From the NCBI RefSeq assembly GCF_016903815.1, contig NZ_CP069973.1: a DNA stretch of 64,000 nt; one strand, written 5' to 3'. Made by a program: the position numbers and the translations under genes. How positions within the stretch are numbered: position 1 is the stretch's first letter; each line of letters begins with the position of its first letter. The notes beneath the pieces were generated by a model. It was not told the origin of the DNA and did not search any database. It saw only the letters and a program-made list of their open reading frames with translations. The stretch is from Escherichia coli. GTDB taxonomy: Bacteria; Pseudomonadota; Gammaproteobacteria; Enterobacterales; Enterobacteriaceae. Positions 5,101-19,684 of the stretch are shown here, in pieces.

Positions 5101-5658
5101 TTCCAGAATGGCGATATAGCCGTTCAGGGCAACCAGCTTCTGCTGTTGCGCTTCGACTTCTGCCTGAGTCTGCGCTTTTTCTCGCGCCTGCTGTTCAAGC
5201 TGTTGTTTTAGCGTCAGCACTTCCTGGTGATAGAGGTTTTCGCCACGTTCCGGCAACACAAATACCGGCACCGGGAAGTCATAATCTTTGGTGACCAGAC
5301 GGTAGTACCAGACAGCCAGGCGGAACCCGAGTCGCAGGCACATCTGGGCATCGTCGAGATCGTTATGGTATTCGTGCACCGCCTGGTTACCAATGCGGCG
5401 TAATTTGTGGAATACAGAGAGAATGTTGTCATCAACGAAGGCGATTTTGCCGAGTTCGCGCAGGAGATCGTGTTGATTCTCACAAGGGGGGATGTTGAGT
5501 AACAGACCAAGATGTTTCGCTGTAGCTTCGCCAAACATACGCATTTTAATCAGCGTCGTGTTGGGATCATCCGGGTAGTTATTTTCCGCCGCACAGGCGA
5601 TGGCATAAGTGAAGTCGTTGACGCCCTTCAGGAATTCGAAGTTGGATTTATTCATCAT
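2146..5658 (-). CDS. hsdR: Type I R-M restriction/translocase subunit HsdR (EcoKI family)
   Basis: 1170-aa ORF. It has helicase motifs MATGTGKT (Walker A) and VVDEAH, and the EcoKI-type N-terminus MMNKSNFEFLKGVNDF. Confidence 0.97.
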   Translation of the reverse strand: MMNKSNFEFLKGVNDFTYAIACAAENNYPDDPNTTLIKMRMFGEATAKHLGLLLNIPPCENQHDLLRELGKIAFVDDNILSVFHKLRRIGNQAVHEYHNDLDDAQMCLRLGFRLAVWYYRLVTKDYDFPVPVFVLPERGENLYHQEVLTLKQQLEQQAREKAQTQAEVEAQQQKLVALNGYIAILEGKQQETEAQTQARLAALEAQLAEKNAELAKQTEQERKAYHKEITDQAIKRTLNLSEEESRFLIDAQLRKAGWQADSKTLRFSKGARPEPGVNKAIAEWPTGKDETGNQGFADYVLFVGLKPIAVVEAKRKNIDVPGKLNESYRYSKCFDNGFLRETLLEHYSPDEVHEAVPEYETSWQDTSGQQRFKIPFCYSTNGREYRAAMKTKSGIWYRDVRDTRNMSKALPEWHRPEELLEMLGSEPQKQNQWFADNPGMSELGLRYYQEDAVRAVEKAIVKGQQEILLAMATGTGKTRTAIAMMFRLIQSQRFKRILFLVDRRSLGEQALGAFEDTRINGDTFNSIFDIKGLTDKFPEDSTKIHVATVQSLVKRTLQSDEPMPVARYDCIVVDEAHRGYILDKEQTEGELQFRSQLDYVSAYRRILDHFDAVKIALTATPALHTVQIFGEPVYRYTYRTAVIDGFLIDQDPPIQIITRNAQEGVYLSKGEQVERISPQGEVINDTLEDDQDFEVADFNRGLVIPAFNRAVCNELTNYLDPTGSQKTLVFCVTNAHADMVVEELRTAFKKKYPQLEHDAIIKITGDADKDARKVQTMITRFNKERLPNIVVTVDLLTTGVDIPSICNIVFLRKVRSRILYEQMKGRATRLCPDVNKTSFKIFDCVDIYSTLESVDTMRPVVVRPKVELQTLVNEITDSETYKITEADGRSFAEHSHEQLVAKLQRIIGLATFNRDRSETIDKQVRRLDELCQDAAGVNFNGFASRLREKGPHWSAEVFNKLPGFIARLEKLKTDINNLNDAPIFLDIDDEVVSVKSLYGDYDTPQDFLEAFDSLVQRSPNAQPALQAVINRPRDLTRKGLVELQEWFDRQHFEESSLRKAWKETRNEDIAARLIGHIRRAAVGDALKPFEERVDHALTRIKGENDWSSEQLSWLDRLAQALKEKVVLDDDVFKTGNFHRRGGKAMLQRTFDDNLDNLLDKFSDYIWDELA

Positions 5659-5845
5659 TGTTATTAATCCATTGCTGTGTGGGCCTGTCCAAATATTTAA
5701 GGCCCATAACGCCCTATCTTAGCTTTCTGTACCTTTCCGGGCAATGACCGGAGTCACAGCAACTGACTCATTTCTAACGTGTTCGTCTATTTTGGTAGTG
5801 TTATAGTAGCCGAAAAACATCTACCTGATTCTGCAAGGATGTACT

Positions 5846-6760
5846 ATGACGGTTCCTACCTATGACAAATTTATTGAACCTGTTCTGCGTTATCTGGCAA
5901 CAAAACCGGAAGGTGCAGCCGCGCGTGATGTTCATGAGGCTGCCGCGGATGCATTAGGACTGGATGACAGCCAGCGATCGAAAGTCATTACCAGCGGACA
6001 ACTTGTTTATAAAAATCGTGCAGGCTGGGCACATGACCGTTTAAAACGTGCCGGGTTGTCGCAAAGTTTGTCGCGTGGCAAATGGTGCCTGACTCCTGCG
6101 GGTTTTGACTGGGTTGCGTCTCATCCCCAGCCAATGACGGAGCAGGAGATGAACCATCTGGCCTTCAATTTTGTGAATGTCAAACTTAAGTCACGGCCGG
6201 ATGCCGTCGATTTAGATCCGAAAGCCGACTCTCCCGATCATGAAGAACTTGCAAAGAGCAGCCCGGACGATCGGTTAGATCAGGCGCTAAAAGAGCTTCG
6301 TGATGCGGTGGCTGATGAGGTTCTGGAAAACTTATTGCAGGTTTCTCCTTCGCGCTTTGAAGTCATTGTTCTGGATGTTTTGCATCGCCTGGGGTATGGC
6401 GGCCACCGTGATGATTTGCAGCGTGTTGGCGGTACTGGAGATGGTGGCATCGATGGTGTGATATCGCTTGATAAACTTGGCCTGGAGAAAGTTTATGTTC
6501 AGGCAAAACGTTGGCAGAATACTGTAGGCAGGCCAGAATTACAGGCATTTTACGGCGCACTGGCTGGGCAAAAAGCGAAACGTGGGGTGTTTATTACCAC
6601 TTCTGGATTTACTTCTCAGGCGCGTGACTTTGCCCAATCCGTCGAGGGTATGGTGTTGGTTGATGGGGAACGCCTGGTGCACTTAATGATCGAAAACGAA
6701 GTAGGGGTTTCTTCACGTTTGTTGAAGGTGCCGAAACTGGATATGGATTATTTTGAGTGA
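5846..6760 (+). CDS. mrr: Type IV methylation-dependent restriction endonuclease Mrr
   Basis: 304-aa ORF MTVPTYDKFIEPVLRYLATKPEG... matching E. coli Mrr. It is divergent from hsdR. Confidence 0.96.
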   Translation: MTVPTYDKFIEPVLRYLATKPEGAAARDVHEAAADALGLDDSQRSKVITSGQLVYKNRAGWAHDRLKRAGLSQSLSRGKWCLTPAGFDWVASHPQPMTEQEMNHLAFNFVNVKLKSRPDAVDLDPKADSPDHEELAKSSPDDRLDQALKELRDAVADEVLENLLQVSPSRFEVIVLDVLHRLGYGGHRDDLQRVGGTGDGGIDGVISLDKLGLEKVYVQAKRWQNTVGRPELQAFYGALAGQKAKRGVFITTSGFTSQARDFAQSVEGMVLVDGERLVHLMIENEVGVSSRLLKVPKLDMDYFE

Positions 6761-6766
6761 AATATC

Positions 6767-6797
6767 AGGCCGGATGCGGCTGCGCCTTATCCGGCCC
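6767..6797. repeat. REP palindromic unit
   Basis: AGGCCGGATGCGGCTGCGCCTTATCCGGCCC lies between the convergent mrr and yjiA. Confidence 0.85.
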
Positions 6798-6805
6798 ATA
6801 ACCCC

Positions 6806-7762
6806 TTACTTCCTCAACCCCGCAAACGCCGCCCGAATCTCATCCTCCGGCAGCTGAATCCCGATAAACACCATCGTGCTATGCGGTTTTTCATCGCCCC
6901 ACGGCCTGTCCCAGTCGGCGCTGTAGAGGCGCTGGACGCCCTGGAACAGCAGGCGGTTAGGTTCGCCGTCAATCCACAGCATCCCTTTGTAACGCAGCAG
7001 TTTATCTGCCGATTCCAGCAGCAGGTTTTCCATCACGCGGGAAACTTCGCTGATATCTACCGGGTAATCCAGTTCCACCACAATCGACGAAATATCGTTT
7101 TGTTTGTCCGCGATAAAGTGAAAACGTGGCTTGGTGCTGACGACGTTTTCTTCCAGCATAAAACCGTTGGTGTTGAACAACAGGCCCAGGTCGATGTCGC
7201 CGTGGGTGACGGTGTAGACCGGTGCACGGGCGTTGATGCGCGCCAGGCGTTCACGCAGTTTTTCTGCTTCGCCTGCGACGTCGGTTTTAGTCAGCAGAAT
7301 ACGGTCGGCGTAGCCAACCTGGGACTGGGCGATGGTGAACTGGTTCATCTGCTCATCGGCATGTACCGCATCCACCAGCGCAATCACGCCATCCAGCAGG
7401 TAACGCTGGCATAAAATCTCATGGGAGAAAAAGGTCTGAATAATCGGGCCGGGATCGGCCATGCCGGTGCATTCAATGACCAGACGGTCGAACTGAATAT
7501 TGCCCTTGTCGAGATTATCCAGCAGGTCGAGTAGGGCGTCTTCCAGCTCGTTGGAGCGCGAACAGCAGATGCAGCCGTTGGTCAGCGTTTTGATCTGCGT
7601 GGCGCGGTCGCCAATCAGTTGATCATCAACGGAGACTTCGCCGAATTCGTTTTCAATCACGGCAATCTTGTAGCCGTGTTGTTCGTTAAGAATATGGCGC
7701 AGCAGGGTGGTTTTTCCTGCGCCTAAAAAACCGGTGAGTAGGGTAACTGCAATCGGGTTCAT
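6806..7762 (-). CDS. yjiA: COG0523-family metal-binding GTPase YjiA
   Basis: The ORF track extends to 7846, but the start is placed at MNPIAVTLLTGFLGAGKTT (P-loop). A GCICC motif is present. Length is 318 aa. Confidence 0.92.
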   Translation of the reverse strand: MNPIAVTLLTGFLGAGKTTLLRHILNEQHGYKIAVIENEFGEVSVDDQLIGDRATQIKTLTNGCICCSRSNELEDALLDLLDNLDKGNIQFDRLVIECTGMADPGPIIQTFFSHEILCQRYLLDGVIALVDAVHADEQMNQFTIAQSQVGYADRILLTKTDVAGEAEKLRERLARINARAPVYTVTHGDIDLGLLFNTNGFMLEENVVSTKPRFHFIADKQNDISSIVVELDYPVDISEVSRVMENLLLESADKLLRYKGMLWIDGEPNRLLFQGVQRLYSADWDRPWGDEKPHSTMVFIGIQLPEDEIRAAFAGLRK

Positions 7763-7772
7763 GCTCTCTCCA

Positions 7773-7976
7773 TTAACAACAGCGCATACCGCCTTTACCA
7801 TCGCCGCCGTAGCGCGCGTTCTGGCGTTCGCGGAAGAATTCTTCATAGCTCATGTACGGCTTGTCGGGATGGTTGGTCTTCATATGCTCGACGTAGTTGT
7901 CGTAGTCTGGAATGCCAATCAACATCTTCGCCGCCTGGCCGAGATATTTTTTTGCCTGTCCTAAGTTACCAAACAT
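7773..7976 (-). CDS. yjiX: Small conserved protein YjiX (CstA/BtsT-associated, DUF466)
   Basis: 67-aa [31 protein letters not shown]... located immediately downstream of btsT. Confidence 0.9.
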
Positions 7977-8024
7977 TTTGCCTTCCAGATATGCGTAAAG
8001 CCCGGAAGGTCCGGGCTGGGGATT

Positions 8025-8093
<69 letters not shown>

Positions 8094-10244
8094 TTAGTGG
8101 TGCGAAGAGATCTTCACGCCGCCTTCCGGGATTGGAACGTACGGTGTTTCTTTGTCAGTACGTTTGTCGCTGTTACGCACCTTCAGCCAGGTTTTGAAAC
8201 CGTAGAAGATGATGCTGTACACCACAATCAGGAACAGAATACTCAGGCCTGCGTTGGTGTAGTTGTTCACAACGATGTGGTTCATGTTGGCAATCTGCTG
8301 CGCCGTCAGGTCAGTACCGTTAGCAATCTTCTCTTTGTACTGGCTCGCCATGTAGAAGAAGCCTTCCATCTGCGGGTTGGTGCTGAACAGTTTCAGGCCC
8401 AGCGCCCAGGTGGTGCAGATAAGCAGCCATACTGCCGGGATAACGGTAACCCAGATGTATTGGGTGCGCTTCATCTTAATCAGTACAACGGTGCCCAGTA
8501 CCAGCGCCACGGCTGCCAGCATCTGGTTGGAGATACCGAACAGCGGCCACAGGCTCTTAACGCCGCCCAGCGGATCGACCACGCCCTGATACAGCAGGTA
8601 GCCCCACAGACCCACACAGCCCGCAGTACCGATGATACCGGCAACCAGAGAGTCGGTTTTTTTCAGGAACGGGATGAAGTTACCCAGCAGGTCTTGCAGC
8701 ATAAAGCGGCCAGAACGGGTACCCGCATCCAGCGCGGTCAGGATGAACAGGGCTTCGAACAGAATACCGAAGTGATACCAGAAGCCCATGTCAGCCATCG
8801 GCAGCACTTTGTGGAACACGTGAGCGATACCTACCGCCAGCGTTGGCGCACCACCTGCACGGTTCAGGACAGAAGGCTCACCAATGTCTTTCGCGGTTTG
8901 CAGGATCTGCTCTGGCGAAATCACGAAGCCCCAGGAGCTGACGGTCGCTGCCGCGTGTGCGGTAACGTCTTTCAGCTGTGCCATGATGATCGGCGCGTTC
9001 TCGCCACCCATTTCATGCAGGTTAGGCATGGTGATGCCGAGGCCAGCAGGCGGGGTGTTCATCGCGAAGTAAAGACCCGGTTCGATGATGGACGCAGCAA
9101 CCAGCGCCATAATCGCCACGAAGGACTCCATCAGCATTGCGCCGTAGCCGATGAAACGCGCGTCGGTTTCATTAGCCAGCAGTTTCGGCGTCGTACCGGA
9201 AGAGATCAGCGCGTGGAAGCCAGATACCGCACCACAGGCGATGGTGATGAACAGGAACGGGAACAGAGCGCCTTTCCACAGCGGGCCAGTACCGTCAATG
9301 TACTGGGTCATGGCAGGCATTTTCAGTTCCGGGTTCAGCACCACGATACCCAGCGCCAGGCCGACGATAACGCCGATTTTCAGGAAGGTTGCCAGATAGT
9401 CGCGCGGTGCGAGGATCAGCCACACTGGCAGCAGTGCGGAAACAAACGCATAGCCAATCAGCGCGAAAGTAATGGTGGTATCTTTAAAGGTCAGTGCCGG
9501 ACCCCAGTACGGATCGTGAGCAATCACGCCACCGAAGTAGATAGAGGCAACCAGCAGCACGATACCAATGACAGAGACTTCACCCACACGCCCCGGACGA
9601 ATAAAGCGCATGTAGATACCCATAAACAGCGCAATCGGTACGGTTGAGCAAACGGTGAAGACCCCCCACGGACTTTCGGCCAGGGCTTTAACCACAATCA
9701 GTGCCAGAACGGCGAGGATGATGATCATGATTAAGAAACAGCCAAACAGCGCGATAGTCCCCGGTACTGGTCCCATCTCTTCTTTGATCATCTCACCAAG
9801 AGATGCGCCGTTACGGCGAGAGGAGATAAACAGCACCATAAAGTCCTGAACCGCACCGGCCAGCACGACCCCCGCCAGCAGCCACAGCGTGCCAGGCAGG
9901 TAGCCCATCTGCGCGGCGAGAACCGGACCCACCAGCGGACCAGCACCGGCGATAGCGGCGAAGTGGTGACCAAACAACACGTAACGGTTGGTCGGAACGT
10001 AGTTCAGACCGTCGTTGTTAATAACCGCAGGCGTCGCGCGCGTGGGGTCGAGTTTCATCACCTTCTGGGCGATGTACAGACTGTAGTAGCGATACGCCAC
10101 CAGATACACCGACACAGAGGCGACCACGATCCACAGGGCGCTGACGTGCTCCCCCCGACGTAATGCAACTACCGCGAGGCAGAATGCACCGATGATTCCG
10201 AGAATCACCCAGGGTATGTGCTTGAATATCTTTTTAGTATCCAT
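8094..10244 (-). CDS. btsT: Pyruvate/H+ symporter BtsT (YjiY), CstA family
   Basis: Long polytopic membrane ORF. The start is chosen at MDTKKIFKHIPWVILG (716 aa); the ORF track begins 5 codons earlier. Confidence 0.93.
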   Translation of the reverse strand: MDTKKIFKHIPWVILGIIGAFCLAVVALRRGEHVSALWIVVASVSVYLVAYRYYSLYIAQKVMKLDPTRATPAVINNDGLNYVPTNRYVLFGHHFAAIAGAGPLVGPVLAAQMGYLPGTLWLLAGVVLAGAVQDFMVLFISSRRNGASLGEMIKEEMGPVPGTIALFGCFLIMIIILAVLALIVVKALAESPWGVFTVCSTVPIALFMGIYMRFIRPGRVGEVSVIGIVLLVASIYFGGVIAHDPYWGPALTFKDTTITFALIGYAFVSALLPVWLILAPRDYLATFLKIGVIVGLALGIVVLNPELKMPAMTQYIDGTGPLWKGALFPFLFITIACGAVSGFHALISSGTTPKLLANETDARFIGYGAMLMESFVAIMALVAASIIEPGLYFAMNTPPAGLGITMPNLHEMGGENAPIIMAQLKDVTAHAAATVSSWGFVISPEQILQTAKDIGEPSVLNRAGGAPTLAVGIAHVFHKVLPMADMGFWYHFGILFEALFILTALDAGTRSGRFMLQDLLGNFIPFLKKTDSLVAGIIGTAGCVGLWGYLLYQGVVDPLGGVKSLWPLFGISNQMLAAVALVLGTVVLIKMKRTQYIWVTVIPAVWLLICTTWALGLKLFSTNPQMEGFFYMASQYKEKIANGTDLTAQQIANMNHIVVNNYTNAGLSILFLIVVYSIIFYGFKTWLKVRNSDKRTDKETPYVPIPEGGVKISSHH

Positions 10245-10400
10245 AGTAAAACCTGGCATGTATTGATTAATAGTTGGCCGAAGCCGTTCTAGGTTTGCGT
10301 TGCGTTTGAGGAGGTAAATTGACCGCTATCCTGCAGTGATGTTGCCAGAGTTACGCGCGCGTAAAGTAAGGTAAATAACTGAGTGGTTATTTTAGGGACG

Positions 10401-10428
10401 TAAGCGGTCAGGAATGGCGGTGAGCGGC
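10401..10428 (-). promoter_or_regulatory. Candidate BtsR (YehT) binding site, a direct repeat upstream of btsT
   Basis: The minus strand reads GCCGCTCA-ccgccattcctg-ACCGCTTA. This resembles the published ACC[G/T]CT[C/T]A direct repeat (about 13-bp spacer) of the yjiY promoter. The match is judged from memory of the motif. Confidence 0.5.
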
Positions 10429-10563
10429 AAAGGCGTCGTTTAAGTGACCATAAATATGTGATTTATATCACATATTTATATTGCGAATAATTTATGTAAA
10501 TAATGGCTTTTTAAATTCAGGGGGTGAATAAAATTACTCGGCGTCATCTCCGCGGGATTTTCA

Positions 10564-10590
10564 TAAAGTTTTTCCTTTCCAGGCCGAAAA
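10564..10590 (+). promoter_or_regulatory. Sigma-28 (FliA) promoter of tsr
   Basis: TAAAGTTT-N11-GCCGAAAA compared with the consensus TAAAGTTT-N11-GCCGATAA. It lies about 30 bp upstream of the tsr ATG. Confidence 0.8.
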
Positions 10591-10620
10591 TCTTGCATCG
10601 GTCCACAGGAAAGAGAAACC

Positions 10621-12285
10621 ATGTTAAAACGTATCAAAATTGTGACCAGCCTACTGCTGGTTTTGGCCGTTTTTGGCCTTTTACAACTGACTTCAGGCGG
10701 TCTGTTCTTTAATGCCTTAAAGAACGACAAAGAAAATTTCACTGTTTTACAAACCATTCGCCAGCAGCAATCCACGCTGAATGGCAGCTGGGTCGCTTTG
10801 TTGCAGACGCGTAACACCCTCAACCGCGCGGGTATCCGCTACATGATGGATCAGAACAATATTGGTAGCGGTTCAACCGTTGCTGAGCTGATGCAGAGTG
10901 CCAGTATTTCGCTGAAACAGGCGGAAAAAAACTGGGCGGATTACGAAGCGTTGCCGCGTGACCCGCGTCAGAGCACCGCCGCAGCGGCAGAGATCAAACG
11001 TAATTACGATATTTATCACAATGCGCTGGCGGAGCTGATACAACTGTTAGGTGCAGGCAAAATCAACGAGTTCTTTGATCAGCCGACCCAGGGATATCAG
11101 GACGGTTTCGAGAAGCAGTATGTGGCTTACATGGAGCAAAACGATCGGCTCTATGATATCGCCGTCAGCGATAACAATGCCTCCTACAGCCAGGCGATGT
11201 GGATTCTGGTAGGCGTGATGATCGTCGTACTGGCGGTCATCCTCGCCGTCTGGTTCGGTATTAAAGCCTCGCTGGTAGCGCCAATGAATCGCCTGATTGA
11301 CAGCATTCGTCATATTGCAGGCGGCGATCTAGTGAAACCGATTGAGGTGGATGGCTCTAATGAGATGGGGCAACTGGCAGAGAGTTTGCGCCATATGCAG
11401 GGAGAGCTGATGCGTACCGTCGGTGATGTGCGCAACGGGGCCAATGCCATCTATAGCGGTGCCAGCGAAATCGCCACCGGCAATAACGATCTCTCTTCGC
11501 GCACCGAGCAACAGGCCGCTTCGCTGGAAGAGACGGCAGCCAGCATGGAGCAACTGACCGCAACGGTGAAACAGAATGCCGAAAATGCGCGCCAGGCCAG
11601 CCATCTGGCGTTAAGTGCTTCCGAAACGGCGCAACGCGGCGGCAAAGTGGTGGATAACGTGGTGCAGACCATGCGCGATATCTCCACCAGTTCGCAGAAA
11701 ATCGCCGATATTATCAGCGTAATTGACGGCATTGCCTTCCAGACCAATATTCTGGCTTTGAACGCGGCGGTTGAGGCTGCGCGTGCGGGTGAGCAAGGAC
11801 GCGGTTTTGCGGTGGTCGCGGGAGAAGTGCGTAATCTGGCCCAGCGTAGCGCTCAGGCTGCTCGTGAAATTAAAAGCCTGATTGAAGACTCGGTGGGGAA
11901 AGTGGATGTTGGCTCTACGCTGGTCGAAAGCGCCGGGGAAACAATGGCGGAGATTGTCAGTGCCGTGACCCGCGTGACGGACATTATGGGCGAAATTGCT
12001 TCTGCTTCTGATGAGCAGAGCCGTGGTATCGATCAGGTTGGCTTAGCGGTTGCTGAGATGGACCGGGTAACTCAACAGAACGCCGCGCTGGTGGAAGAAT
12101 CTGCCGCCGCCGCCGCCGCGCTGGAAGAACAGGCCAGTCGCCTGACCGAAGCAGTGGCAGTGTTCCTGATTCAGCAACAGCAGCAACAGCAGCGTGAAGC
12201 ATCGGCTGTGGTAAAAACCGTGACGCCAGCTACGCCGCGCAAAATGGCCGTGGCAGATAGCGAGGAGAACTGGGAAACGTTTTAA
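10621..12285 (+). CDS. tsr: Methyl-accepting chemotaxis protein I (serine receptor) Tsr
   Basis: 554-aa ORF with a highly conserved MCP signalling domain and the C-terminal NWETF pentapeptide. Confidence 0.96.
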
Positions 12286-12294
12286 CGTAATGAT

Positions 12295-12324
12295 GCCGGA
12301 TGAGTATTTCATCCGGCGTTTTTA
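12295..12324. terminator. Rho-independent terminator between tsr and the TRAP operon (possibly bidirectional)
   Basis: Hairpin GCCGGATGA-gtatt-TCATCCGGC followed by GTTTTTATTATT. Confidence 0.8.
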
Positions 12325-12327
12325 TTA

Positions 12328-13599
12328 TTAAACCAGGAACAGTGAAATCGCCGGGATATATGTCACCAGCATTAGCATTAACAGTAGAGCCGCCAGTAGG
12401 GGCAGGGATTGTTTAAAGAAATTTCCCACCGAAACTTGCGTGATATTACATACCAGCAGCATCACGGTACCTACCGGTGGCGTGAATGCGCCAATCGACA
12501 GGTTGAAGATCATGATGATGCCAAAATGCACCGGATCGATGCCAAAGTGTTCGACCACCGGTTTTAATAGTGGTACCAGGATCAGCAAAATGGCGTTTCC
12601 TTCCAGAAACATCCCCAGCGTCAGCAGCAATATGTTGATAATCAACAGGAACATGTATTTGTTTTCGGTCAGCGAAGTCACAAAATTCGCCACTGCGACA
12701 CCAGCATGTTCCATTGAGAAAATCCATCCCAATGCGGCGCTGGCCATGATTACCAGCATCACCGATGCGGTTGCGCGTGCCGTTTCGCCCAATGCTTTGA
12801 CGACATGAGAAATCCGCATTTCACGATAGATAAAAAAGCCAATCGCCAGCACGATTAGCACCGCTACTGCACCTGCTTCTGTTGGGGTGAAAATGTTAGC
12901 GCGAATACCACCCACCACAGCAAAAATGAGGAACAGCGCAGGCCAGGCCTGTCCCAGCGAGAACACCATCTCTTTGCCCGTAGGCCAGCTTTCACGCGAG
13001 GGTTTAGCGTTAGTTTTGCGGGCGACAAGGTAGACGGTAAACATCAGTACGACTGCGCATAGCAAACCAGGTACCAGTCCGGCGATAAACATTTTTCCGA
13101 TAGAGACATCGGCAACCAGACCGTAAATAATCAGGGCTATTCCAGGCGGTATGATCGGGGTGACTAACGAGCCACCAGCGGTAATGGCGGCGGCAAACGC
13201 GCGATTGTAGCCTTTACGTTCCATCTCCGGCACCATCATGCGCGACAGCATCGCCGCGTCAGCAAGGTTAGAGGCGCTGACGCCGCCCATCATGGTGCTG
13301 ACGAGAATGTTTGCCACGCCCAGTCCGCCGCGCATTTTCCCCACCAGAACGTTGGCAATGTGCAGGATGCGTTCGGCAATGCCGGTGTAGCTCATTAGTG
13401 TGCCGAGCAAGATAAAAAACGGAATTGCCAGCAATGATGGGCTTTGCGTTGGCGCGATTAGTCTTTGCACGGCAATTTCAATCGGTACGCTGGAGAAGAA
13501 TAAAAAGTAAGCGATGATGCCAATAAACATCGCCAGATAGACCCGAATGTTGAGAAACAAACAGACGATCATTAGCGGAATAATCAATAACCAACTCAT
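12328..13599 (-). CDS. TRAP transporter large permease (DctM family)
   Basis: 423-aa polytopic ORF. Its start overlaps the stop of the upstream small permease (ATGA). The composition is typical of DctM. Confidence 0.88.
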   Translation of the reverse strand: MSWLLIIPLMIVCLFLNIRVYLAMFIGIIAYFLFFSSVPIEIAVQRLIAPTQSPSLLAIPFFILLGTLMSYTGIAERILHIANVLVGKMRGGLGVANILVSTMMGGVSASNLADAAMLSRMMVPEMERKGYNRAFAAAITAGGSLVTPIIPPGIALIIYGLVADVSIGKMFIAGLVPGLLCAVVLMFTVYLVARKTNAKPSRESWPTGKEMVFSLGQAWPALFLIFAVVGGIRANIFTPTEAGAVAVLIVLAIGFFIYREMRISHVVKALGETARATASVMLVIMASAALGWIFSMEHAGVAVANFVTSLTENKYMFLLIINILLLTLGMFLEGNAILLILVPLLKPVVEHFGIDPVHFGIIMIFNLSIGAFTPPVGTVMLLVCNITQVSVGNFFKQSLPLLAALLLMLMLVTYIPAISLFLV

Positions 13600-14069
13600 T
13601 GCATTTTGTCTCCGCTATCGGATTGTTTTGTATCGTTTATTAACCAGTAGAGGGTATAAATAGCCGTTGCCAGTGCGCCGACAGGGACCGCCAGATCGAT
13701 CCAGAACCAGGAAACTTTCAGAATTTGTGTCACTTTAAACTGCGCCATTTCGGCTAGTCGGTAGCCCAGCCAGGCCATATAAAGCAGCAGTGCGATGGAG
13801 AGAAGGGCGACCAGTACTGCAATAACACGCCTGAGTTTGCCTGGAAGCATCTCCATCAGGAAGGGAATGGTCAGGTGCGCCCTGTCACGTTCCGCCACCA
13901 CTCCACCTAACATCACCACCCAAATCATCAGCATTCCCGACATTTCTTCTGTCCATTGAAGCGGTTGGCCGATGAAATAACGCATAAATACCGCTCCAAT
14001 TGTCACCACAACCAGAACGAATAGCGCAAAGGCAGCACTAAATTCTGCCACTTTGCCAAAAAGACGCAT
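13596..14069 (-). CDS. TRAP transporter small permease (DctQ family)
   Basis: 157-aa ORF with four hydrophobic segments, located between the DctP-like and DctM-like genes. Confidence 0.85.
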   Translation of the reverse strand: MRLFGKVAEFSAAFALFVLVVVTIGAVFMRYFIGQPLQWTEEMSGMLMIWVVMLGGVVAERDRAHLTIPFLMEMLPGKLRRVIAVLVALLSIALLLYMAWLGYRLAEMAQFKVTQILKVSWFWIDLAVPVGALATAIYTLYWLINDTKQSDSGDKMQ

Positions 14070-14132
14070 GAAACCTCCTGTTAGTGCGTGTCCTGCCTAA
14101 GAGAGATGAGGCAGGACGCTGAGCATTAATGC

Positions 14133-15104
14133 TTATTGCAGTTGCTGTTGAATGGTTTCGTACAGACCTGGTGTCCATTCCGGGAATTGAGAGTAAACTT
14201 CGCGTGCTTTCTTCTGGAATGGTCCAGTATCGGGATAGATCACTTCGACGCCGGCTGCCTGCATGGTTTTCAACATTTCGGCATCACGCTCAAGAGTGAG
14301 TTTCTGGCTATAGACACCCGCTTCATAGCCGGTCTGGTGGATCATCTCCAGTTGTTCTGGTGAAAGGGTGCTAAAGAAGGCTTCACCACCTATCCACACT
14401 GAGGTATTTGTCAGGTAGTTAACCATTGTCAGATATCTTGCCTGCTCATACAGTTTTTGCCCTTGCAGCACTGAAATTGGGTTTTCTACGCCGTCAATAA
14501 CGCCCTGGGTTAATGCGGGATAAACTTCGCCTAATGGCATGGGAGTTGGTGTTGCCCCCATCGCCTGAATGGCTTTTATTTGCATGACGTTATTAGGAAC
14601 GCGAATTTTTAAACCTGCGAGATCGTCAACGGTGCGAATGGGTTTTTTCGAAATAATCTGTCGAGTGCCATAGAGATAATTATTCATTACCACATGAATT
14701 CCCTTTTTCTTCAGACTTTCATTTTTTTGTTTAAACCAGTCGCTTTCATATATTTTGAACAGTTTTTGCGGATCGTCAGTCAGATACGGTCCAAACAAAA
14801 TCCCCAAATCGGGTTCATAATCGGCAAGAAAAGCCACATCACTCAAGGTTATGACATTCATGCCCATCATGGCTTGCTCGGTGACATCCTGTTTTGATCC
14901 CAATTGGGAGCTGGGATAGAGCGCAAGTGTTATTTCGCCATTACTTTTTTTATTTAATAGGTCTGCCCAGTAACGCATGACCACATCCAGGGGTTCTCCA
15001 GGGTTATTTTCATAGGCAACTTTTATTGAAATAGGTTTTGCCTGGATTATTGACGGTAAAAAAAGGGTACTGACAGTAATTAGCATCGCTATTATTTTGC
15101 TCAT
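14133..15104 (-). CDS. TRAP transporter periplasmic solute-binding protein (DctP family)
   Basis: 323-aa ORF with a signal peptide (MSKIIAMLITVSTLFLPSIIQA) and DctP-family features, including the conserved Arg in YGTRQI. Confidence 0.88.
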   Translation of the reverse strand: MSKIIAMLITVSTLFLPSIIQAKPISIKVAYENNPGEPLDVVMRYWADLLNKKSNGEITLALYPSSQLGSKQDVTEQAMMGMNVITLSDVAFLADYEPDLGILFGPYLTDDPQKLFKIYESDWFKQKNESLKKKGIHVVMNNYLYGTRQIISKKPIRTVDDLAGLKIRVPNNVMQIKAIQAMGATPTPMPLGEVYPALTQGVIDGVENPISVLQGQKLYEQARYLTMVNYLTNTSVWIGGEAFFSTLSPEQLEMIHQTGYEAGVYSQKLTLERDAEMLKTMQAAGVEVIYPDTGPFQKKAREVYSQFPEWTPGLYETIQQQLQ

Positions 15105-15451
15105 CTTTACTTACTCCATGCTAAGGAAATAAAACTCCAACATTGTTGTCGGGAGTGAAACCTTATGAAAAAGCAGTCATTACTGAAAAGTAGTCAGCGA
15201 ATAGCAGAATGGCTGCAGATGTATCATAAATTCGTGCACCGGGTAATACTTTGCTGCTTTTAATCGGTTTTTAATGCATTTTTTGATTGTATATCTTAAA
15301 GTTATGTAATGCATGACGTTACAAGGAACACCCTCTGATGAGTTTAGTTACCGCTGATAAGATCTCTTATTCTGTTGATGATTTATTAAAAATAAAATCA
15401 TTAATTTGGCTGCGGCCATTTTAAATTGTCAATACAGATAAAAACTAAGTG

Positions 15452-15480
15452 TTGACGCAGAATGGTGGTATCCATTAAAT
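15452..15480 (+). promoter_or_regulatory. Candidate sigma-70 promoter facing the Na+/H+ exchanger gene
   Basis: TTGACG-N17-TTAAAT. A perfect TATAAT also occurs at 15514-15519. This is a prediction only. Confidence 0.35.
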
Positions 15481-15773
15481 TTATTTAGTGCTGATTTAAT
15501 ACATTTGCTGAACGTATAATTCATGCTGATATTAAAAGAAAACCGTCATTCACTAAATAACTTGTTCGGCAAGGAAATCAGAGAGTAACGGATGATTCGT
15601 TACAACGGGGAAAGGCAGTAAATATTCACGTGGTGAATTTGTTATCAACTTGAAAACTCATTTTACTGGGTTCCTTCTGATCATGTGAGTGAACGCAGTG
15701 ATTAATGATTAACGTTAAGTGCTAACCAGAGCGCTTTTTATGAAGTTAAATTAATAATATCCATTATTTATGA

Positions 15774-17447
15774 ATGAGGAAGCCTGTTTATTATATGGAA
15801 ATACTTTTAACAATTTTAATTCTTACGTTGGTAGTATCATTAACCAGCGTGCTTACACGTCTGTCTCCTGTCCAGATACCACTTCCTTTAATCCAGATTG
15901 CCGCTGGCGCAGTACTGGCCCAGCCTATATTTGGTCTGCATGTGGAATTCAATCCTGAACTTTTTCTCTTATTGTTTATACCACCCCTGTTGTTTGCTGA
16001 AAGTTCAAAAATACAACCTAAAGAATTGATCAAGCACAGCCGGGAAATTATCAGCCTGGCACTTGTGTTGGTACTAATCACTATTTTTGGTGTCGGCTAT
16101 GTGATTCATTTACTCTTACCGAATGTGCCGCTCATCGCTGCTTTCGCATTAGCCGCCGTGTTGTCGCCTACCGATGCCGTGGCGTTGCTGGGGATTGTCG
16201 GGAAAGGGCGTATCAGCAAAAACATCCAGGAAGTGCTCGAAGGCGAAGCGTTGATGAATGATGCTTCCGGCCTGGTGGCGTTGAAATTTGCTGTTGCAGT
16301 GACGATGGGAACGATGGAATTCAGCGTTCATGGCGCAACCATTGCGTTTTTTGTCGTTGCGTTGGGCGGTATTGCCGTGGGGATCGCTGTTACCTGGTTA
16401 TATGGTAAAGGGCTGCTGTTGATCAGCCGATATGCTCACGATGAACCTTCCATTCAGATTGTATTGATGCTTCTGTTGCCGTTTATTGTTTATCTGGTTG
16501 CGGAACATTTTGGCTTATCTGGCATTCTTGCCGCTGTCGCCGCGGGGTTAACAACCAGTCGCATTGGTGTAGTCCACCACGCGCCTATTCGCCTGAGAAT
16601 TAAAGCTAAAAGTAGCTGGTCGATGCTTGAATATGTCTTTAACGGCATGGTGTTTCTGATTTTAGGCTTACAACTGCCGGGCATTATTTCGGAATCACTG
16701 ATCCGTGCAGAAAACGATCCACTGGTGGACACCGGATCGCTGCTCCTTGATGTCATTTGGATCTACCTGGCGTTAATGGTTGTGCGCCTGGGCTGGCTTT
16801 GGCTGATGCGTCTGTATAGCCGTAAACGACCCGGCAAACATCCGATGCTGTTTGCTGGATATAAAACGCGTCATATGCTGCTGGCGACCTTTGCGGGGGT
16901 GCGCGGAGCTATCACGCTTGCGGGGGTGCTTTCTATCCCGTTATTGCTGCCGGATGGCACACCTTTTCCCGGGCGTTACTTGCTGGTATTTCTCGCCACA
17001 GGTGTGATCCTCTTTTCGCTGGTTTGCGGCATTATTATTCTGCCGTTATTACTGGGGAAAAATGTGGGGATTTTCAGCGATAACCGACAAAAAGAAGAGG
17101 AAGCTGCCGATCTGTTTATGGCTAAAATGGCCATACTGAGTGTGCAAAAGACCGAGCAACGTTTGCTGCGCGCCAGAACAGAAAACCTCGATAACGAGTT
17201 GATTATGGAAACGGGGGCCAGAGTTATCGGTTATATGCGACATAGTGAAGAGGATATGTCGCCTAATGATAATTCCCTGCATATGCAGCGTGCGAAGCTG
17301 GAAAGAACATTTAATCTGGCGGCGTTAAATGCCAAACGCGCGGCTATTTACCAGATGCGCGCAAGGCAAGAAGTCAGTGATGAAACACTGGCAAAAATAG
17401 TCAGTGAATTAGATGTGCTGGAAACGTTAATCATGGATAGCCGATAA
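15774..17447 (+). CDS. CPA1-family Na+/H+ exchanger, YjcE paralogue
   Basis: 557-aa ORF (alternative start at ATG 15795, MEILLTILILTLVVSL). There are long identical stretches to E. coli YjcE as I recall it (FGLHVEFxPELF, LSPTDAVAL, EGEALMNDASGLV, FAGVRGAITLAGVLSIPLLLP). Confidence 0.88.
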   Translation: MRKPVYYMEILLTILILTLVVSLTSVLTRLSPVQIPLPLIQIAAGAVLAQPIFGLHVEFNPELFLLLFIPPLLFAESSKIQPKELIKHSREIISLALVLVLITIFGVGYVIHLLLPNVPLIAAFALAAVLSPTDAVALLGIVGKGRISKNIQEVLEGEALMNDASGLVALKFAVAVTMGTMEFSVHGATIAFFVVALGGIAVGIAVTWLYGKGLLLISRYAHDEPSIQIVLMLLLPFIVYLVAEHFGLSGILAAVAAGLTTSRIGVVHHAPIRLRIKAKSSWSMLEYVFNGMVFLILGLQLPGIISESLIRAENDPLVDTGSLLLDVIWIYLALMVVRLGWLWLMRLYSRKRPGKHPMLFAGYKTRHMLLATFAGVRGAITLAGVLSIPLLLPDGTPFPGRYLLVFLATGVILFSLVCGIIILPLLLGKNVGIFSDNRQKEEEAADLFMAKMAILSVQKTEQRLLRARTENLDNELIMETGARVIGYMRHSEEDMSPNDNSLHMQRAKLERTFNLAALNAKRAAIYQMRARQEVSDETLAKIVSELDVLETLIMDSR

Positions 17448-17463
17448 TTTTATCGCTGCCAGT

Positions 17464-17519
17464 AATAGGGAATTAAATGATGGCTGAGAGTAATACTTCC
17501 AGCATCGTTTATTCCCTAT
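17464..17519. terminator. Compound hairpin between the convergent exchanger gene and lgoR
   Basis: AATAGGGAAT ... ATTCCCTAT outer stem with an inner GATGGCTG...CAGCATC stem. There is no clear U-tract. Confidence 0.35.
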
Positions 17520-17617
17520 GTATTTCCTTATGGGCAGAACAATCGCCTGGATTAATACTGCATTAATACAACATAGTGATATAAACCAAGAATCAATGTT
17601 TTTAATCTGTACTTAAT

Positions 17618-18523
17618 TTATCGGTGATGTTGCCTGATGGAACGAATCATTGATTGTTTGGCGGTATCCAGATGGTTTCGCAACGCCGTTATTGCATCTA
17701 AATCGCTACGGCAAATCAGGGCGCTGAGAATGGTCATATGTTCATCAACAGCAATGATATTGCGCTGTTTGAGATCGCTTTCATCCCATTGATAGTGAAA
17801 ATGAAAGATCACCGATATAATTTCAAGTGATTGATTAAAAAAGATGTTGTCAGCAGCGGATAACAGCATGGCATGAAAATCACGGTCTAATTGAGAAAAC
17901 ATTCGAAAGTTGCTGCCAATGCTGTCGCGCAATGTCCTGTGACGTTCGAGCATGGTTTTCGCCTGCAACCAGCGAGGGTCATCATCGGGAAGGTTGAGAA
18001 AGTGTTGCAGGGAATGTGTTTCGAGCATTTCGCGTAGCTCAAACAGCTGCTCGGCGTAGGATTGATCGAACTGCTTCATGCTCCATTGGCCGCGCTTTTC
18101 GCTTTGAATAAGATTATAACGACCGAATTTCAAAAGATATTCTCGTACCACTACCGGACTGACGCTTGCCGCTCGCGCCAGCTGAAGTTCGGAAAAGCTT
18201 TCTCCGGCGCGTAACTGGCGCAGGTTAATCATGGTGAAAAATGCCTGCTCGAAAAGACGGTTTTGCTCTTTCAGCGAGGCCGTGATGCAATCAAATCCAT
18301 CGTTCTGTTCGGGTTTGCGGGCGATAACATAATTTTTCCCCACCAGGGTGAGCACGCCACATGCGCTTAAATGCTGGAGTATGTGGCGTACCGTAGTGCG
18401 ACTGATGTTATACATTTCTGCCAGTCCGCTTTGTGAAGGCAGCGGAGAAGGAATATTGCCCCTCGCCATATCTTCAATCACCTGATTTATGACGCTATGA
18501 CGTAAATTCTGCGAACGACTCAT
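17618..18523 (-). CDS. lgoR: GntR/FadR-family regulator of L-galactonate catabolism LgoR (YjjM)
   Basis: 301-aa ORF with an N-terminal winged HTH (GLAEMYNISRTTVRHILQHL). It is divergent from lgoD. Confidence 0.9.
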   Translation of the reverse strand: MSRSQNLRHSVINQVIEDMARGNIPSPLPSQSGLAEMYNISRTTVRHILQHLSACGVLTLVGKNYVIARKPEQNDGFDCITASLKEQNRLFEQAFFTMINLRQLRAGESFSELQLARAASVSPVVVREYLLKFGRYNLIQSEKRGQWSMKQFDQSYAEQLFELREMLETHSLQHFLNLPDDDPRWLQAKTMLERHRTLRDSIGSNFRMFSQLDRDFHAMLLSAADNIFFNQSLEIISVIFHFHYQWDESDLKQRNIIAVDEHMTILSALICRSDLDAITALRNHLDTAKQSMIRSIRQHHR

Positions 18524-18661
18524 TCTTCCCTCCAGTCCGGCATTAAAAGCCGATTTAAAACATTTTTATGCGCGATCATCCGCATATTTTATGGGTAAAT
18601 TCAGGCGCTCTTATAAATTCGACGATATCTGAAAGTCATAAAATAAAAGGAGCGGTGAATC

Positions 18662-19684
18662 ATGTCCACAATGAAAGTATTAATTTGTCAGGAAATAAAG
18701 AATTTAGTATGGGAAGTCCGGGAAAGACCGGTGCCAGGCGATAATGAAGCATTAATTAAAATTAAAACTGTCGGGATTTGCGGTACAGATATTCATGCCT
18801 GGGCGGGCAATCAGCCATTTTTTAGTTATCCACGCGTTTTAGGCCATGAAATATGTGGGGAGATTATTGAATCAGGAAAAAACATTCACAATTTTAATAT
18901 CGGACAGCAAGTTGCGGTAATTCCGTATATTTCTTGTCAGCAATGCCCGGCGTGTAAAAGCGGTCGTACCAATTGCTGTGAAAAAATTTCAGTCATTGGC
19001 GTGCATCAGGATGGCGGTTTTAGTGAGTATTTGAGCGTGCCGGTGGCGAACATTTTGCCCGCAGACGGTATTGACCCGCAGGCGGCAGCATTGATTGAAC
19101 CTTTCGCTATTAGCGCTCATGCGGTGCGTCGTGCCGCCATTGCACCCAGCGAGCAGGTGCTGGTGGTCGGGGCGGGGCCAATCGGTCTGGGCGCGGCGGC
19201 AATCGCTAAAGCCGATGGCGCGCAGGTGGTGGTGGCGGATACCAGTCCGGCGCGTCGTGAACATGTGGCAACGCGTCTGGAATTACCTGTTCTGGACCCG
19301 TCAGCCGAAGATTTTGACGCGCAGCTGCGGGCGCAGTTTGGTGGTTCGCTGGCGCAGAAAGTGATTGACGCGACAGGTAATCAACATGCGATGAATAACA
19401 CCGTAAATCTGATTCGTCACGGCGGCACGGTGGTATTTGTCGGCCTGTTTAAAGGTGAGTTGCAGTTCTCCGATCCGGAATTCCATAAAAAAGAAACGAC
19501 GATGATGGGCAGCCGCAACGCCACGCCGGAAGATTTCGCTAAAGTCGGTCGATTGATGGCGGAAGGGAAAATCACTGCCGACATGATGTTAACCCATCGC
19601 TATCCGTTCGCCACGCTGGCAGAAACCTACGAGCGCGATGTGATTAACAATCGTGAGTTGATTAAGGGTGTAATTACTTTCTGA
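18662..19684 (+). CDS. lgoD: L-galactonate-5-dehydrogenase LgoD (YjjN), Zn-dependent MDR family
   Basis: 340-aa ORF with Zn-ADH motifs (GICGTDIH, GHEICGEI) and a GAGPIGLG Rossmann fold. Confidence 0.92.
   Translation: MSTMKVLICQEIKNLVWEVRERPVPGDNEALIKIKTVGICGTDIHAWAGNQPFFSYPRVLGHEICGEIIESGKNIHNFNIGQQVAVIPYISCQQCPACKSGRTNCCEKISVIGVHQDGGFSEYLSVPVANILPADGIDPQAAALIEPFAISAHAVRRAAIAPSEQVLVVGAGPIGLGAAAIAKADGAQVVVADTSPARREHVATRLELPVLDPSAEDFDAQLRAQFGGSLAQKVIDATGNQHAMNNTVNLIRHGGTVVFVGLFKGELQFSDPEFHKKETTMMGSRNATPEDFAKVGRLMAEGKITADMMLTHRYPFATLAETYERDVINNRELIKGVITF

Follow-up and report, generated by a model that had tools for sequence, protein, structure and literature searches.

How is L-galactonate taken up by an E. 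coli strain that carries the regulator gene lgoR and the dehydrogenase gene lgoD, and in which the importer gene lgoT is not found beside them? [quoted passage not shown] In K-12 MG1655, lgoT lies exactly in that slot between tsr and lgoR; it forms with lgoR the lgoRT operon and encodes the specific L-galactonate:H+ importer of K-12. An earlier note on the window had proposed that the TRAP system takes the place of LgoT and that the exchanger could recycle the Na+ co-transported with the substrate. The locus was followed up through its anatomy, population pattern, homologies, gene neighbourhoods, shared motifs and selection, and from these the substrate, the Na+ coupling, the control by LgoR and the role of the exchanger were inferred.

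The explanation that we consider probable as a whole is that the region represents an alternative haplotype of the lgo locus in E. coli. A block of ~6.7 kb (12286 to ~18980) would have replaced the 3-kb lgoT-lgoR-5'lgoD segment of K-12, with crossovers inside lgoD on one side and at the 3' end of tsr on the other, and the H+-coupled major facilitator superfamily (MFS) importer, LgoT, would have given way to the binding-protein-dependent DctPQM. DctP would capture L-galactonate, and probably also its 6-deoxy analogue L-fuconate, for import by DctQM, most likely together with Na+; LgoD would then oxidise L-galactonate to D-tagaturonate, which would enter the UxaB/UxaA route to 2-keto-3-deoxygluconate (KDG). 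The operon keeps the block found upstream of lgoT in K-12 and shares an operator-like motif with the lgoD promoter region, and it probably still belongs to the lgo circuit, with control likely exerted by LgoR. Into an ancestral lgoR-dctPQM layout, like that of Citrobacter, a 2.3-kb segment with the CPA1 gene would later have entered between lgoR and the regulatory block, an insertion in the Escherichia lineage that would have parted dctPQM from lgoR. The exchanger is functional, to judge from the purifying selection on it, and a link to the TRAP system through the export of co-transported Na+ is possible.

Replacement of lgoT in the tsr-lgoR slot

The open reading frame (ORF) scan places the whole gene set between tsr and opgB. 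On the minus strand lie dctM (12328-13599; large permease, 423 aa), dctQ (13596-14069; small permease, 157 aa) and dctP (14133-15104; periplasmic solute-binding protein, 323 aa), the stop codon of dctQ overlapping the start of dctM in ATGA. Binding protein, small subunit and large permease are contiguous, as in a three-component DctP-type TRAP system, and the Pfam profiles agree (DctM PF06808, 366.8 bits; DctQ PF04290, 107.6; DctP PF03480, 222.2; Na_H_Exchanger, for the neighbouring gene, 215), as do those of NCBIfam (TIGR00786, 399.6 against a cut-off of 268; TIGR00787, 179.5 against 175). The minus-strand operon described in the earlier note is thus borne out, and so is its statement that no MFS transporter lies between tsr and lgoR: lgoT fills the slot in K-12, and none is found in the window. 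Homology with K-12 is lost at the tsr stop codon (tsr, 10621-12285), which is separated from the convergent stop of dctM by a 42-bp gap (12286-12327), and is regained at 17597, 21 bp past the stop of lgoR (17618-18523, minus strand), a gene for a GntR/FCD regulator. The right-hand member of the set is lgoD (18662-19684, plus strand), encoding L-galactonate 5-dehydrogenase.

The content of this slot follows an either/or pattern across the species. Among 5426 complete E. coli genomes, searched with the 5.3-kb segment at a coverage of at least 80%, the TRAP and exchanger genes were found in 859 (about one in six), always on the chromosome, and the lgoT of K-12 in 4518. The matches fell into two identity classes, with 600 genomes at 99% or more and 264 at 95-99%. 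The same exclusion has been published from a pangenome of ~2200 genomes, in which lgoT never co-occurs with the gene families siaP, siaT and nhaK (Beavan et al., bioRxiv 10.1101/2023.03.20.533463); many independent switches were counted, and the pattern was interpreted as an avoidance between MFS/efflux genes and antiporters. In the accessible portion of that preprint, a shared locus or function of the two gene sets goes unmentioned. If lgoT and the TRAP set are alleles of one locus that serve the same nutrient, their mutual exclusion would follow from position and redundancy. The view that the TRAP/antiporter pairing is not a standard annotated module has therefore to be given up in part, since RefSeq already labels the locus 'TRAP transporter ... 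/ Na+/H+ antiporter' and the exclusion of lgoT has been published; the arrangement was known, and the missing piece was its interpretation.

The TRAP transporter and its probable substrate

The N-terminus of DctP resembles a signal peptide that ends in IQA|KP, and residues 1-20 are disordered in the AlphaFold model. Two arginines are invariant across 35 homologues: R148, in YGTRQI, which matches R127 of SiaP, and R168, in KIRVPN, which matches SiaP R147; N208 is also conserved. The offsets of the VcSiaP and HiSiaP alignments put these arginines at R125/R145 and R127/R147, respectively. The arginine of YGTRQI, which had been singled out as the conserved carboxylate ligand, is accordingly conserved, although the canonical one is the next conserved arginine, R168. 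In a phmmer search DctP matched PDB entry 4OVT (Oant_3902 of Ochrobactrum anthropi) with E = 6e-147 and 70-75% identity, and 4O8M (Actinobacillus succinogenes) with E = 9e-81 and 42-45% identity. Its AlphaFold2 model (mean predicted local distance difference test score 87) superimposes on 4OVT with a template modelling (TM) score of 0.89-0.95 at 70% identity, and the best structural matches are binders of sugar acids and sialic acid. Clusters of TRAP binding proteins are mostly isofunctional at ~60% identity, a rough threshold which the identity to 4OVT exceeds. The 4OVT and 4O8M proteins both figure in a list of TRAP binding proteins 'with known ligands' that goes back to Vetting et al. 2015, and Leyn et al., citing Vetting et al., describe a TRAP transporter beside lgoD, uxaA and uxaB whose specificity is dual, for L-fuconate and L-galactonate.

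The neighbourhoods of orthologous systems point in the same direction. Eighty orthologous TRAP loci outside Escherichia were sampled, 65 of them with a binding protein 60-79% identical to DctP. In 61 of these 65 an LgoD-like Zn-dehydrogenase is encoded within 6 kb, with UxaA-like and UxaB-like proteins in 54 and 42, respectively. The transporter is joined to the lgo genes themselves in Citrobacter amalonaticus and Citrobacter sp. ANG330 (opgB-lgoD<->lgoR-dctPQM-tsr, the double arrow marking divergence) and in Pectobacterium (lgoR<->lgoD-dctPQM). The Brucella locus of the Oant_3902 type holds a uxaB-like gene, a GntR regulator gene, a uxaA-like gene, a gene for an LgoD-like Zn-dehydrogenase and dctPQM, a set which, as annotated by homology, is that of a complete route from L-galactonate through D-tagaturonate and D-altronate to KDG. 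These neighbourhoods, which are independent of the ligands assigned to 4OVT and 4O8M, appear decisive for the substrate. Moreover, lgoR and lgoD are under purifying selection in the absence of lgoT, so that another importer would be needed, a role for which the TRAP system stands out as candidate. That it takes over the uptake of L-galactonate or of a closely related sugar acid, as the earlier note had suggested, is well supported by the exclusivity of the slot, the orthology to 4OVT, the lgo/uxa neighbourhoods and the homologous cis-element described below. Growth of the type strain on L-galactonic acid lactone was considered as phenotypic support and is uninformative, because ATCC 11775 carries lgoT.

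The permease retains the features of a Na+-coupled transporter. DctM aligns with the M subunit of the Photobacterium profundum system, PpSiaM (7QHA_B), at 271.5 bits (E = 1.4e-79), and keeps the features of its Na1 and Na2 sites, namely S108/S110, P151-P152, P374-P375, T373 and E333; the aligned pairs, PpSiaM given first, are SGMSGS/GGVSAS, GPLVPPS/TPIIPPG, GILTPPMG/GAFTPPVG, T369/T373 and E329/E333. The Na+-site residues kept in DctM have been shown by mutagenesis to be essential in PpSiaQM, and import through DctQM is most likely coupled to Na+.

A second, paralogous TRAP system, with a binding protein 72-73% identical, is present in E. coli SCPM-O-B-8794, E. whittamii and E. albertii (about 4995-12800 of the locus retrieved) and was also matched in about 106 of the 5426 genomes. 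Together with dctPQM, its cluster holds genes for a GntR/FCD regulator, an RraA-like aldolase, a Zn-dehydrogenase 36% identical to LgoD, an SDR protein and a UxaA-like dehydratase in split form. The system is probably dedicated to another sugar-acid pathway, and could correspond to the 'GR 21' of the BEN2908 paper.

The conserved upstream block

The region upstream of dctP (15105-15276, minus strand), which would hold its leader and promoter, is homologous to the lgoR-dctP intergenic region of Citrobacter. Its distal part (15226-15276) matches the K-12 block between lgoR and lgoT in 41 of 51 positions, with a local alignment score of 57 that none of 500 shuffles reached (maximum 35). This 51-bp block starts with the motif GCATTAAAAACCGATTAAAAGCA, which recurs as GCATTAAAAGCCGATTTAAAACA in the divergent promoter region between lgoR and lgoD. 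An unbiased local alignment of both intergenic regions recovered a 20/23 match, better than all of 500 dinucleotide shuffles and better than every other 690-bp tile of the window, and the motif pattern occurs in the 64 kb only at 15258-15276 and 18541-18559. The first of these sites lies in the operator-like element ATTAAAAACCGATTAAAAGCA (15256-15276, minus strand) and the second is CATTAAAAGCCGATTTAAA (plus strand). Nothing in the lgoR-lgoD intergenic region is better conserved in K-12, Citrobacter and Pectobacterium than the copy on the lgoD side, which is kept in the first two and shows one mismatch in the third. The TRAP operon thus shares a cis-element with the promoter regions of both lgoD and lgoT, as expected of a member of the lgo regulon. 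The transporter was exchanged and the element upstream of it was kept, from which continued control is deduced: dctPQM is probably still under the lgo circuit, LgoR being the likely regulator.

Other candidate elements of this region did not hold. A hairpin in the dctP leader (15137-15152) is not significant (z = -1.2; consensus energy -2.3 kcal/mol), and an Rfam scan of 12000-19000 gave no match at E <= 1. A 32-aa ORF, MKKQSLLKSSQRIAEWLQMYHKFVHRVILCCF, at 15165-15263 on the plus strand, is preceded by GGGAG and overlaps the conserved block; its K-12 and Citrobacter equivalents would end similarly (..CCF*). It was ruled out as a coding sequence by an in-frame stop in the Escherichia lineage whose CPA1 protein is 91% identical, and its conservation is probably that of the DNA, not of a gene.

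Extent, age and spread of the haplotype

The left flank is 97-100% identical to K-12 up to the tsr stop. On the right, sliding identity remains at 67-89% across 17597-18980 and then rises abruptly to 97-99%. The span of low identity takes in lgoR, the intergenic region that separates it from lgoD, and ~320 bp at the 5' end of lgoD; lgoD itself is 67-85% identical to K-12 before ~18980 and 97-99% after it. The protein sequences agree: LgoR is 86.7% identical between the window and K-12, 86.7% between the window and Citrobacter and 87.0% between K-12 and Citrobacter, and residues 1-105 of LgoD are 80% identical to K-12, the remainder 99.1%. On this profile the variant is a haplotype block of ~6.7 kb (12286 to ~18980), seemingly swapped by homologous recombination with a right-hand breakpoint near 18980, and the two lgo haplotypes are, by their protein identities, diverged as far as between genera. 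The earlier description of lgoR and lgoD as retained next door holds for their presence, and has to be amended in that what stands there is a divergent allele.

All genes of the block are under purifying selection, with ratios of nonsynonymous to synonymous substitution (dN/dS) of 0.015-0.12 at dS values of 0.5-1.15. No integrase, transposase or tRNA gene was found by the ORF scan of 12286-18980, where such genes would mark a mobile island, and a plasmid search returned no close copy, the sole match at 99% or more being a chromosome-sized record. Flanking repeats, 21 bp long and imperfect, belong only to the inner 2.3-kb segment with the CPA1 gene. The module is also present in Escherichia sp. 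E4742 (96%) and in the lineage with the 91%-identical CPA1, and between Escherichia and Citrobacter the TRAP genes are 78% identical, close to the 74-75% of the flanking genes. Together with the two sequence classes within E. coli, these relationships indicate that the haplotype is old, that it spreads through homologous recombination between the core genes on either side of it, and that it is not a mobile island.

The AT-richness that the earlier note had taken as a sign of horizontal origin is evident in the spacer and modest elsewhere: the guanine plus cytosine (GC) content is 33.6% in the spacer, 50.6% in dctM, 49.4% in dctQ, 43.6% in dctP and 47.9% in the CPA1 gene, compared with 51.9% for the window, and lgoR of K-12 (47.4%) is equally GC-poor. 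It makes a poor argument; the real evidence is the divergence, at the level between genera, of lgoR and of the 5' part of lgoD.

Two observations concern the surroundings. Tsr has 554 aa in the window, with a run of seven glutamines near the C-terminus, and the K-12 gene has 1656 nt (551 aa); the difference is probably a length polymorphism of CAG repeats. The type strain ATCC 11775, whose lgoT haplotype lies at 4055740-4061095 of NZ_CP033092.2, differs from the TRAP-haplotype strain 7/2 in its hsd/mrr neighbourhood, where BrnTA and a pseudogene of a restriction endonuclease, interrupted by a stop, are found and where the arrangement of the type I restriction-modification genes departs from that in 7/2.

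The CPA1 exchanger and its insertion

The exchanger gene (15795-17447, plus strand) is indeed divergent from dctPQM, as had been described. RefSeq and all homologues start the protein at 15795 (MEILLT..., 550 aa), the most likely start, which leaves a spacer of 690 bp; the 557 aa and 669 bp given earlier correspond to an alternative upstream ATG at 15774. The protein scores 526.7 bits against TIGR00831 (a_cpa1; cut-off 279.6) and holds T126-D127, N155-D156 and R370, followed by a soluble C-terminal tail of ~120 aa. In NhaP-type CPA1 proteins the TD and ND motifs and the arginine are catalytic. Its relation to YjcE of K-12, proposed before, is confirmed as paralogy: it belongs to the same TIGR00831 family, is 58% identical and lies at another locus, and it shares only 59% identity with the true YjcE orthologues of Salmonella and Brenneria (95% and 75% identical to YjcE, respectively), so that it is a paralogue and not the orthologue. 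It falls into a small separate clade with proteins of Escherichia, of Limnobaculum and Klebsiella sp. I138, and of Edaphovirga. A dN/dS of 0.047 with respect to the lineage of the same layout and 91% amino acid identity speaks of purifying selection, and hence of a functional exchanger.

The gene lies in a segment of 2320 bp (15277-17596), with 518 AT-rich bp before it and 149 bp on its 3' side; the segment is bounded by two copies of an imperfect 21-bp repeat, ATTAAGTACAGATTAAAAACA and ATTAAAAACCGATTAAAAGCA, which are identical in 17 of 21 positions. The lgoR-proximal copy (17597-17617, minus strand) is orthologous to the single copy of K-12, and the dctP-proximal copy coincides with the operator-like motif at 15256-15276. 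In K-12 the single 21-mer runs straight into the conserved block, which in the window follows the second copy. The same junction is found in the 91% lineage, and the segment is missing from the arrangements of Citrobacter and K-12. By this anatomy the exchanger segment is a secondary insertion into an ancestral lgoR-dctPQM layout, and it would have broken the lgoR-transporter operon in the TRAP haplotype. The pair does not behave as a conserved module: no CPA1 gene was found within 10 kb at any of the 80 orthologous TRAP loci outside Escherichia. The only part of the spacer conserved between E. coli and the 91% lineage is ~100 bp adjoining the CPA1 start (15684-15783), which contains the tandem GATTAATGATTAAC and presumably serves the exchanger itself as promoter or operator.

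The nearest relatives of the exchanger outside Escherichia, those of Klebsiella sp. I138 and of Limnobaculum xujianqingii (a single lineage, 76-77% identical), are divergent from a dctPQM operon across a spacer of 700-750 bp. This TRAP system is unrelated to that of the window (26-27% identity), with a binding protein like TakP/2HZK, and no homology was found between the spacers of Escherichia and Limnobaculum. The unit reads GntR - TakP-like dctMQP <-> CPA1 (5169-11650 of one of these loci), lies between an acrD-like (ACR_tran) and an aegA-like (Fer4/Pyr_redox_2) gene, and looks like an accessory insertion that brought TRAP operon and exchanger together. A third relative, in Edaphovirga (75%), does not adjoin a TRAP operon; in Edaphovirga cremea it lies ~100 kb from the TRAP genes on the same contig and adjoins ParA, ParG and Rep3 genes, which suggests an integrated or misassembled plasmid segment. 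The association of the exchanger with a different TRAP system in the Limnobaculum lineage lends some weight to Na+ recycling; adjacency in two of three lineages is suggestive, in a thin sample.

A scan of metagenomes for further lineages of this clade returned 58 loci, all of them the Escherichia module. Two chimeric sequences were also met. In the E. coli draft GCA_015160575.1 (10001-11653), YjcE residues ~1-275 (100%) are joined to the C-terminal half of the window's CPA1 (100%), in the contig order ghxP-chimera-lgoR-lgoD-opgB. Reciprocally, on an ENA metagenome contig (1133-2782), residues 1-150 of the window's CPA1 (100%) are fused to K-12 YjcE and followed by SSF/actP-like and DUF485/yjcH-like genes, as downstream of yjcE in K-12; it was excluded as an independent exchanger/TRAP lineage. 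The chimeras could stem from paralogues collapsed in assembly, or the two loci, which lie about 300 kb from each other, could really have recombined.

Alternative explanations

Several points weigh against the reading of the TRAP system as a replacement for LgoT under lgo control. No data on binding, uptake, growth or expression of this E. coli system were found in the literature; the shared motif is short and AT-rich, and binding of the regulator to it is putative; and a sigma-70 scan found no convincing consensus promoter beside the conserved block, a result compatible with an activator-dependent promoter that proves nothing. No LgoT homologue exists within the window, and its absence from the whole genome rests on the counts and on the published lack of co-occurrence. 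In Edaphovirga cremea, furthermore, an orthologous TRAP system (binding protein 83%) has no lgoR or lgoD nearby. A different substrate, for instance only L-fuconate, L-gulonate or C4-dicarboxylates, with L-galactonate uptake lost and lgoD a remnant or in another role, is an improbable alternative, although it can call on several facts. RefSeq names the system 'C4-dicarboxylate', which is a generic family name, and the nearest solved homologue, 4OVT, was reportedly crystallised with L-fuconate (6-deoxy-L-galactonate) and not with L-galactonate, the reported ligand of 4O8M. LgoD is, by the title of one reference, also active on L-gulonate. Against this alternative stand the intact lgoR and lgoD under purifying selection, the full LgoD/UxaB/UxaA set around the orthologous TRAP at most loci, its union, in Citrobacter and Pectobacterium, with operons of lgoR or lgoD, the retained upstream block of the lgoT type, and the sugar acids and sialic acid bound by the top structural matches. 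Still a little less credible is a recent, horizontally acquired island recognisable by its AT-richness: the GC contents of spacer and dctP and the between-genera divergence of lgoR and 5'-lgoD would suit it, whereas the ordinary GC content of dctM and dctQ, the equally low value of K-12 lgoR, the lack of integrase, transposase or tRNA in the block, the two E. coli sequence classes with E4742 and the 91% lineage beyond them, and the flank-like identity to Citrobacter all speak for an old allele.

Within the preferred explanation, an old haplotype in which the TRAP system replaces LgoT, the part of the exchanger can be seen in two ways. For a passenger gene, that is, an unrelated YjcE paralogue inserted by chance and kept by its own role in cation or pH homeostasis and by tight linkage, we would give about even chances. 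The flanking 21-bp repeats, the absence of the exchanger from every orthologous TRAP locus elsewhere (80/80), its convergence with lgoR, its own conserved upstream region of ~100 bp and the plasmid-like context of the Edaphovirga copy fit such an origin; what fits less well is the second lineage, where the same exchanger clade faces a different TRAP system, again divergently, a coincidence that chance would hardly produce were the two events independent. A dedicated Na+ cycle, in which the exchanger is the partner of the TRAP system, is co-expressed with it from the divergent spacer and expels the co-imported Na+ as a self-contained module, is a more tentative proposal and on balance rather unlikely. 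It would account for that second lineage, with its 76-77% relatives and 700-750-bp spacer, and for strict co-inheritance in Escherichia (859 genomes), the gene families co-occurring perfectly in the published data; the layout and the dN/dS of 0.047 in the 91% lineage, the Na+-site residues of DctM and the intact TD and ND motifs and conserved arginine of the exchanger are likewise in its favour. It is opposed by the lack of a CPA1 gene at 80 of 80 loci, by Citrobacter, where this slot holds the same TRAP system and no exchanger, by the Edaphovirga relative, by a pairing confined to two independent lineages with non-homologous spacers, and by the position of the sole lgo-type motif, ~520 bp from the CPA1 start. 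In addition, E. coli already possesses NhaA, NhaB and ChaA. That the YjcE-like clade has been recruited at least twice as a Na+-recycling partner beside TRAP operons of unrelated specificity, one for sugar acids in Escherichia and one of TakP-like type in the Limnobaculum lineage, is a more doubtful idea yet.

Significance

The TRAP system belongs by orthology to a family of sugar-acid TRAP transporters characterised through structures, and is itself uncharacterised, as is YjcE, of which the exchanger is a paralogue. What is new is the reading of the exclusion of lgoT as a positional and functionally equivalent replacement that keeps the cis-element, together with the borders of the haplotype, the anatomy of the exchanger insertion and the recurrence of the exchanger clade beside an unrelated TRAP operon. 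A mechanistic reading is thereby offered for the published 'avoidance' of lgoT and siaP/siaT/nhaK, which appears unexplained in the accessible portion of the pangenome work. The locus would be a natural case in which one transporter is displaced, in its own slot, by a non-orthologous one while the cis-regulatory block stays, and it predicts a difference between lineages, high-affinity, Na+-dependent scavenging of L-galactonate against H+ symport of lower affinity, which could affect niche partitioning in the gut. Were the Na+ cycle real, TRAP system and exchanger would form a self-sufficient module for high-affinity, Na+-driven import in a mainly H+-coupled enterobacterium, and E. coli would be polymorphic for H+-coupled (LgoT) and Na+-coupled (TRAP plus exchanger) acquisition of one nutrient; should the adjacency of the two prove functional, it would add a modest new idea to the energetics of transport.

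Comparison with known systems

Among characterised TRAP systems, SiaPQM of H. influenzae and P. profundum shares with DctPQM the architecture, the Na+ site and twin prolines of DctM, and the equivalents of R127 and R147. The binding proteins are only ~27% identical, from which it follows that the substrate differs from that of the sialic-acid systems, and Q and M are fused in HiSiaQM, whereas they are separate here. The closest characterised relative is the Oant_3902/4OVT operon, which has a binding protein 70-75% identical and of the same fold (TM 0.89-0.95) with both arginines, the same dctP-dctQ-dctM order and an LgoD-type neighbour. The Brucella/Ochrobactrum operon differs in carrying uxaA-like and uxaB-like genes and a gene for an ExuR-like GntR regulator; in E. 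coli the genes for the UxaA/UxaB-type enzymes lie at other sites, LgoR takes the place of that regulator, and a CPA1 exchanger gene has been inserted.

For the exchanger, YjcE of K-12, itself an uncharacterised CPA1 protein, is alike in its TIGR00831 equivalog family, its length class, its TD and ND motifs and its arginine, and unlike in sequence (58% identity) and in locus (ghxP-yjcE-yjcF). The island of Limnobaculum and Klebsiella sp. I138 shares the exchanger clade (76-77%), the divergent geometry and a spacer of ~700 bp, but its TRAP system is only 26-27% identical, with a binding protein that resembles TakP/2HZK and 4YZZ and a DctM of 493 aa.

Finally, LgoT of K-12 (YjjL; MFS, ACS family) has in common with the TRAP system the slot between tsr and lgoR, the homologous 51-bp upstream block and the presumed partners LgoR and LgoD, and is a single H+-coupled MFS polypeptide as against a tripartite, binding-protein-dependent and probably Na+-coupled transporter. 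The lgo locus of Citrobacter amalonaticus and C. farmeri is a further close counterpart: the binding protein is 90% and DctM 94% identical, and the flanks and the lgoR-proximal block are the same, whereas it has neither the exchanger nor the 518-bp AT-rich segment, and dctPQM follows directly after lgoR on the same strand.

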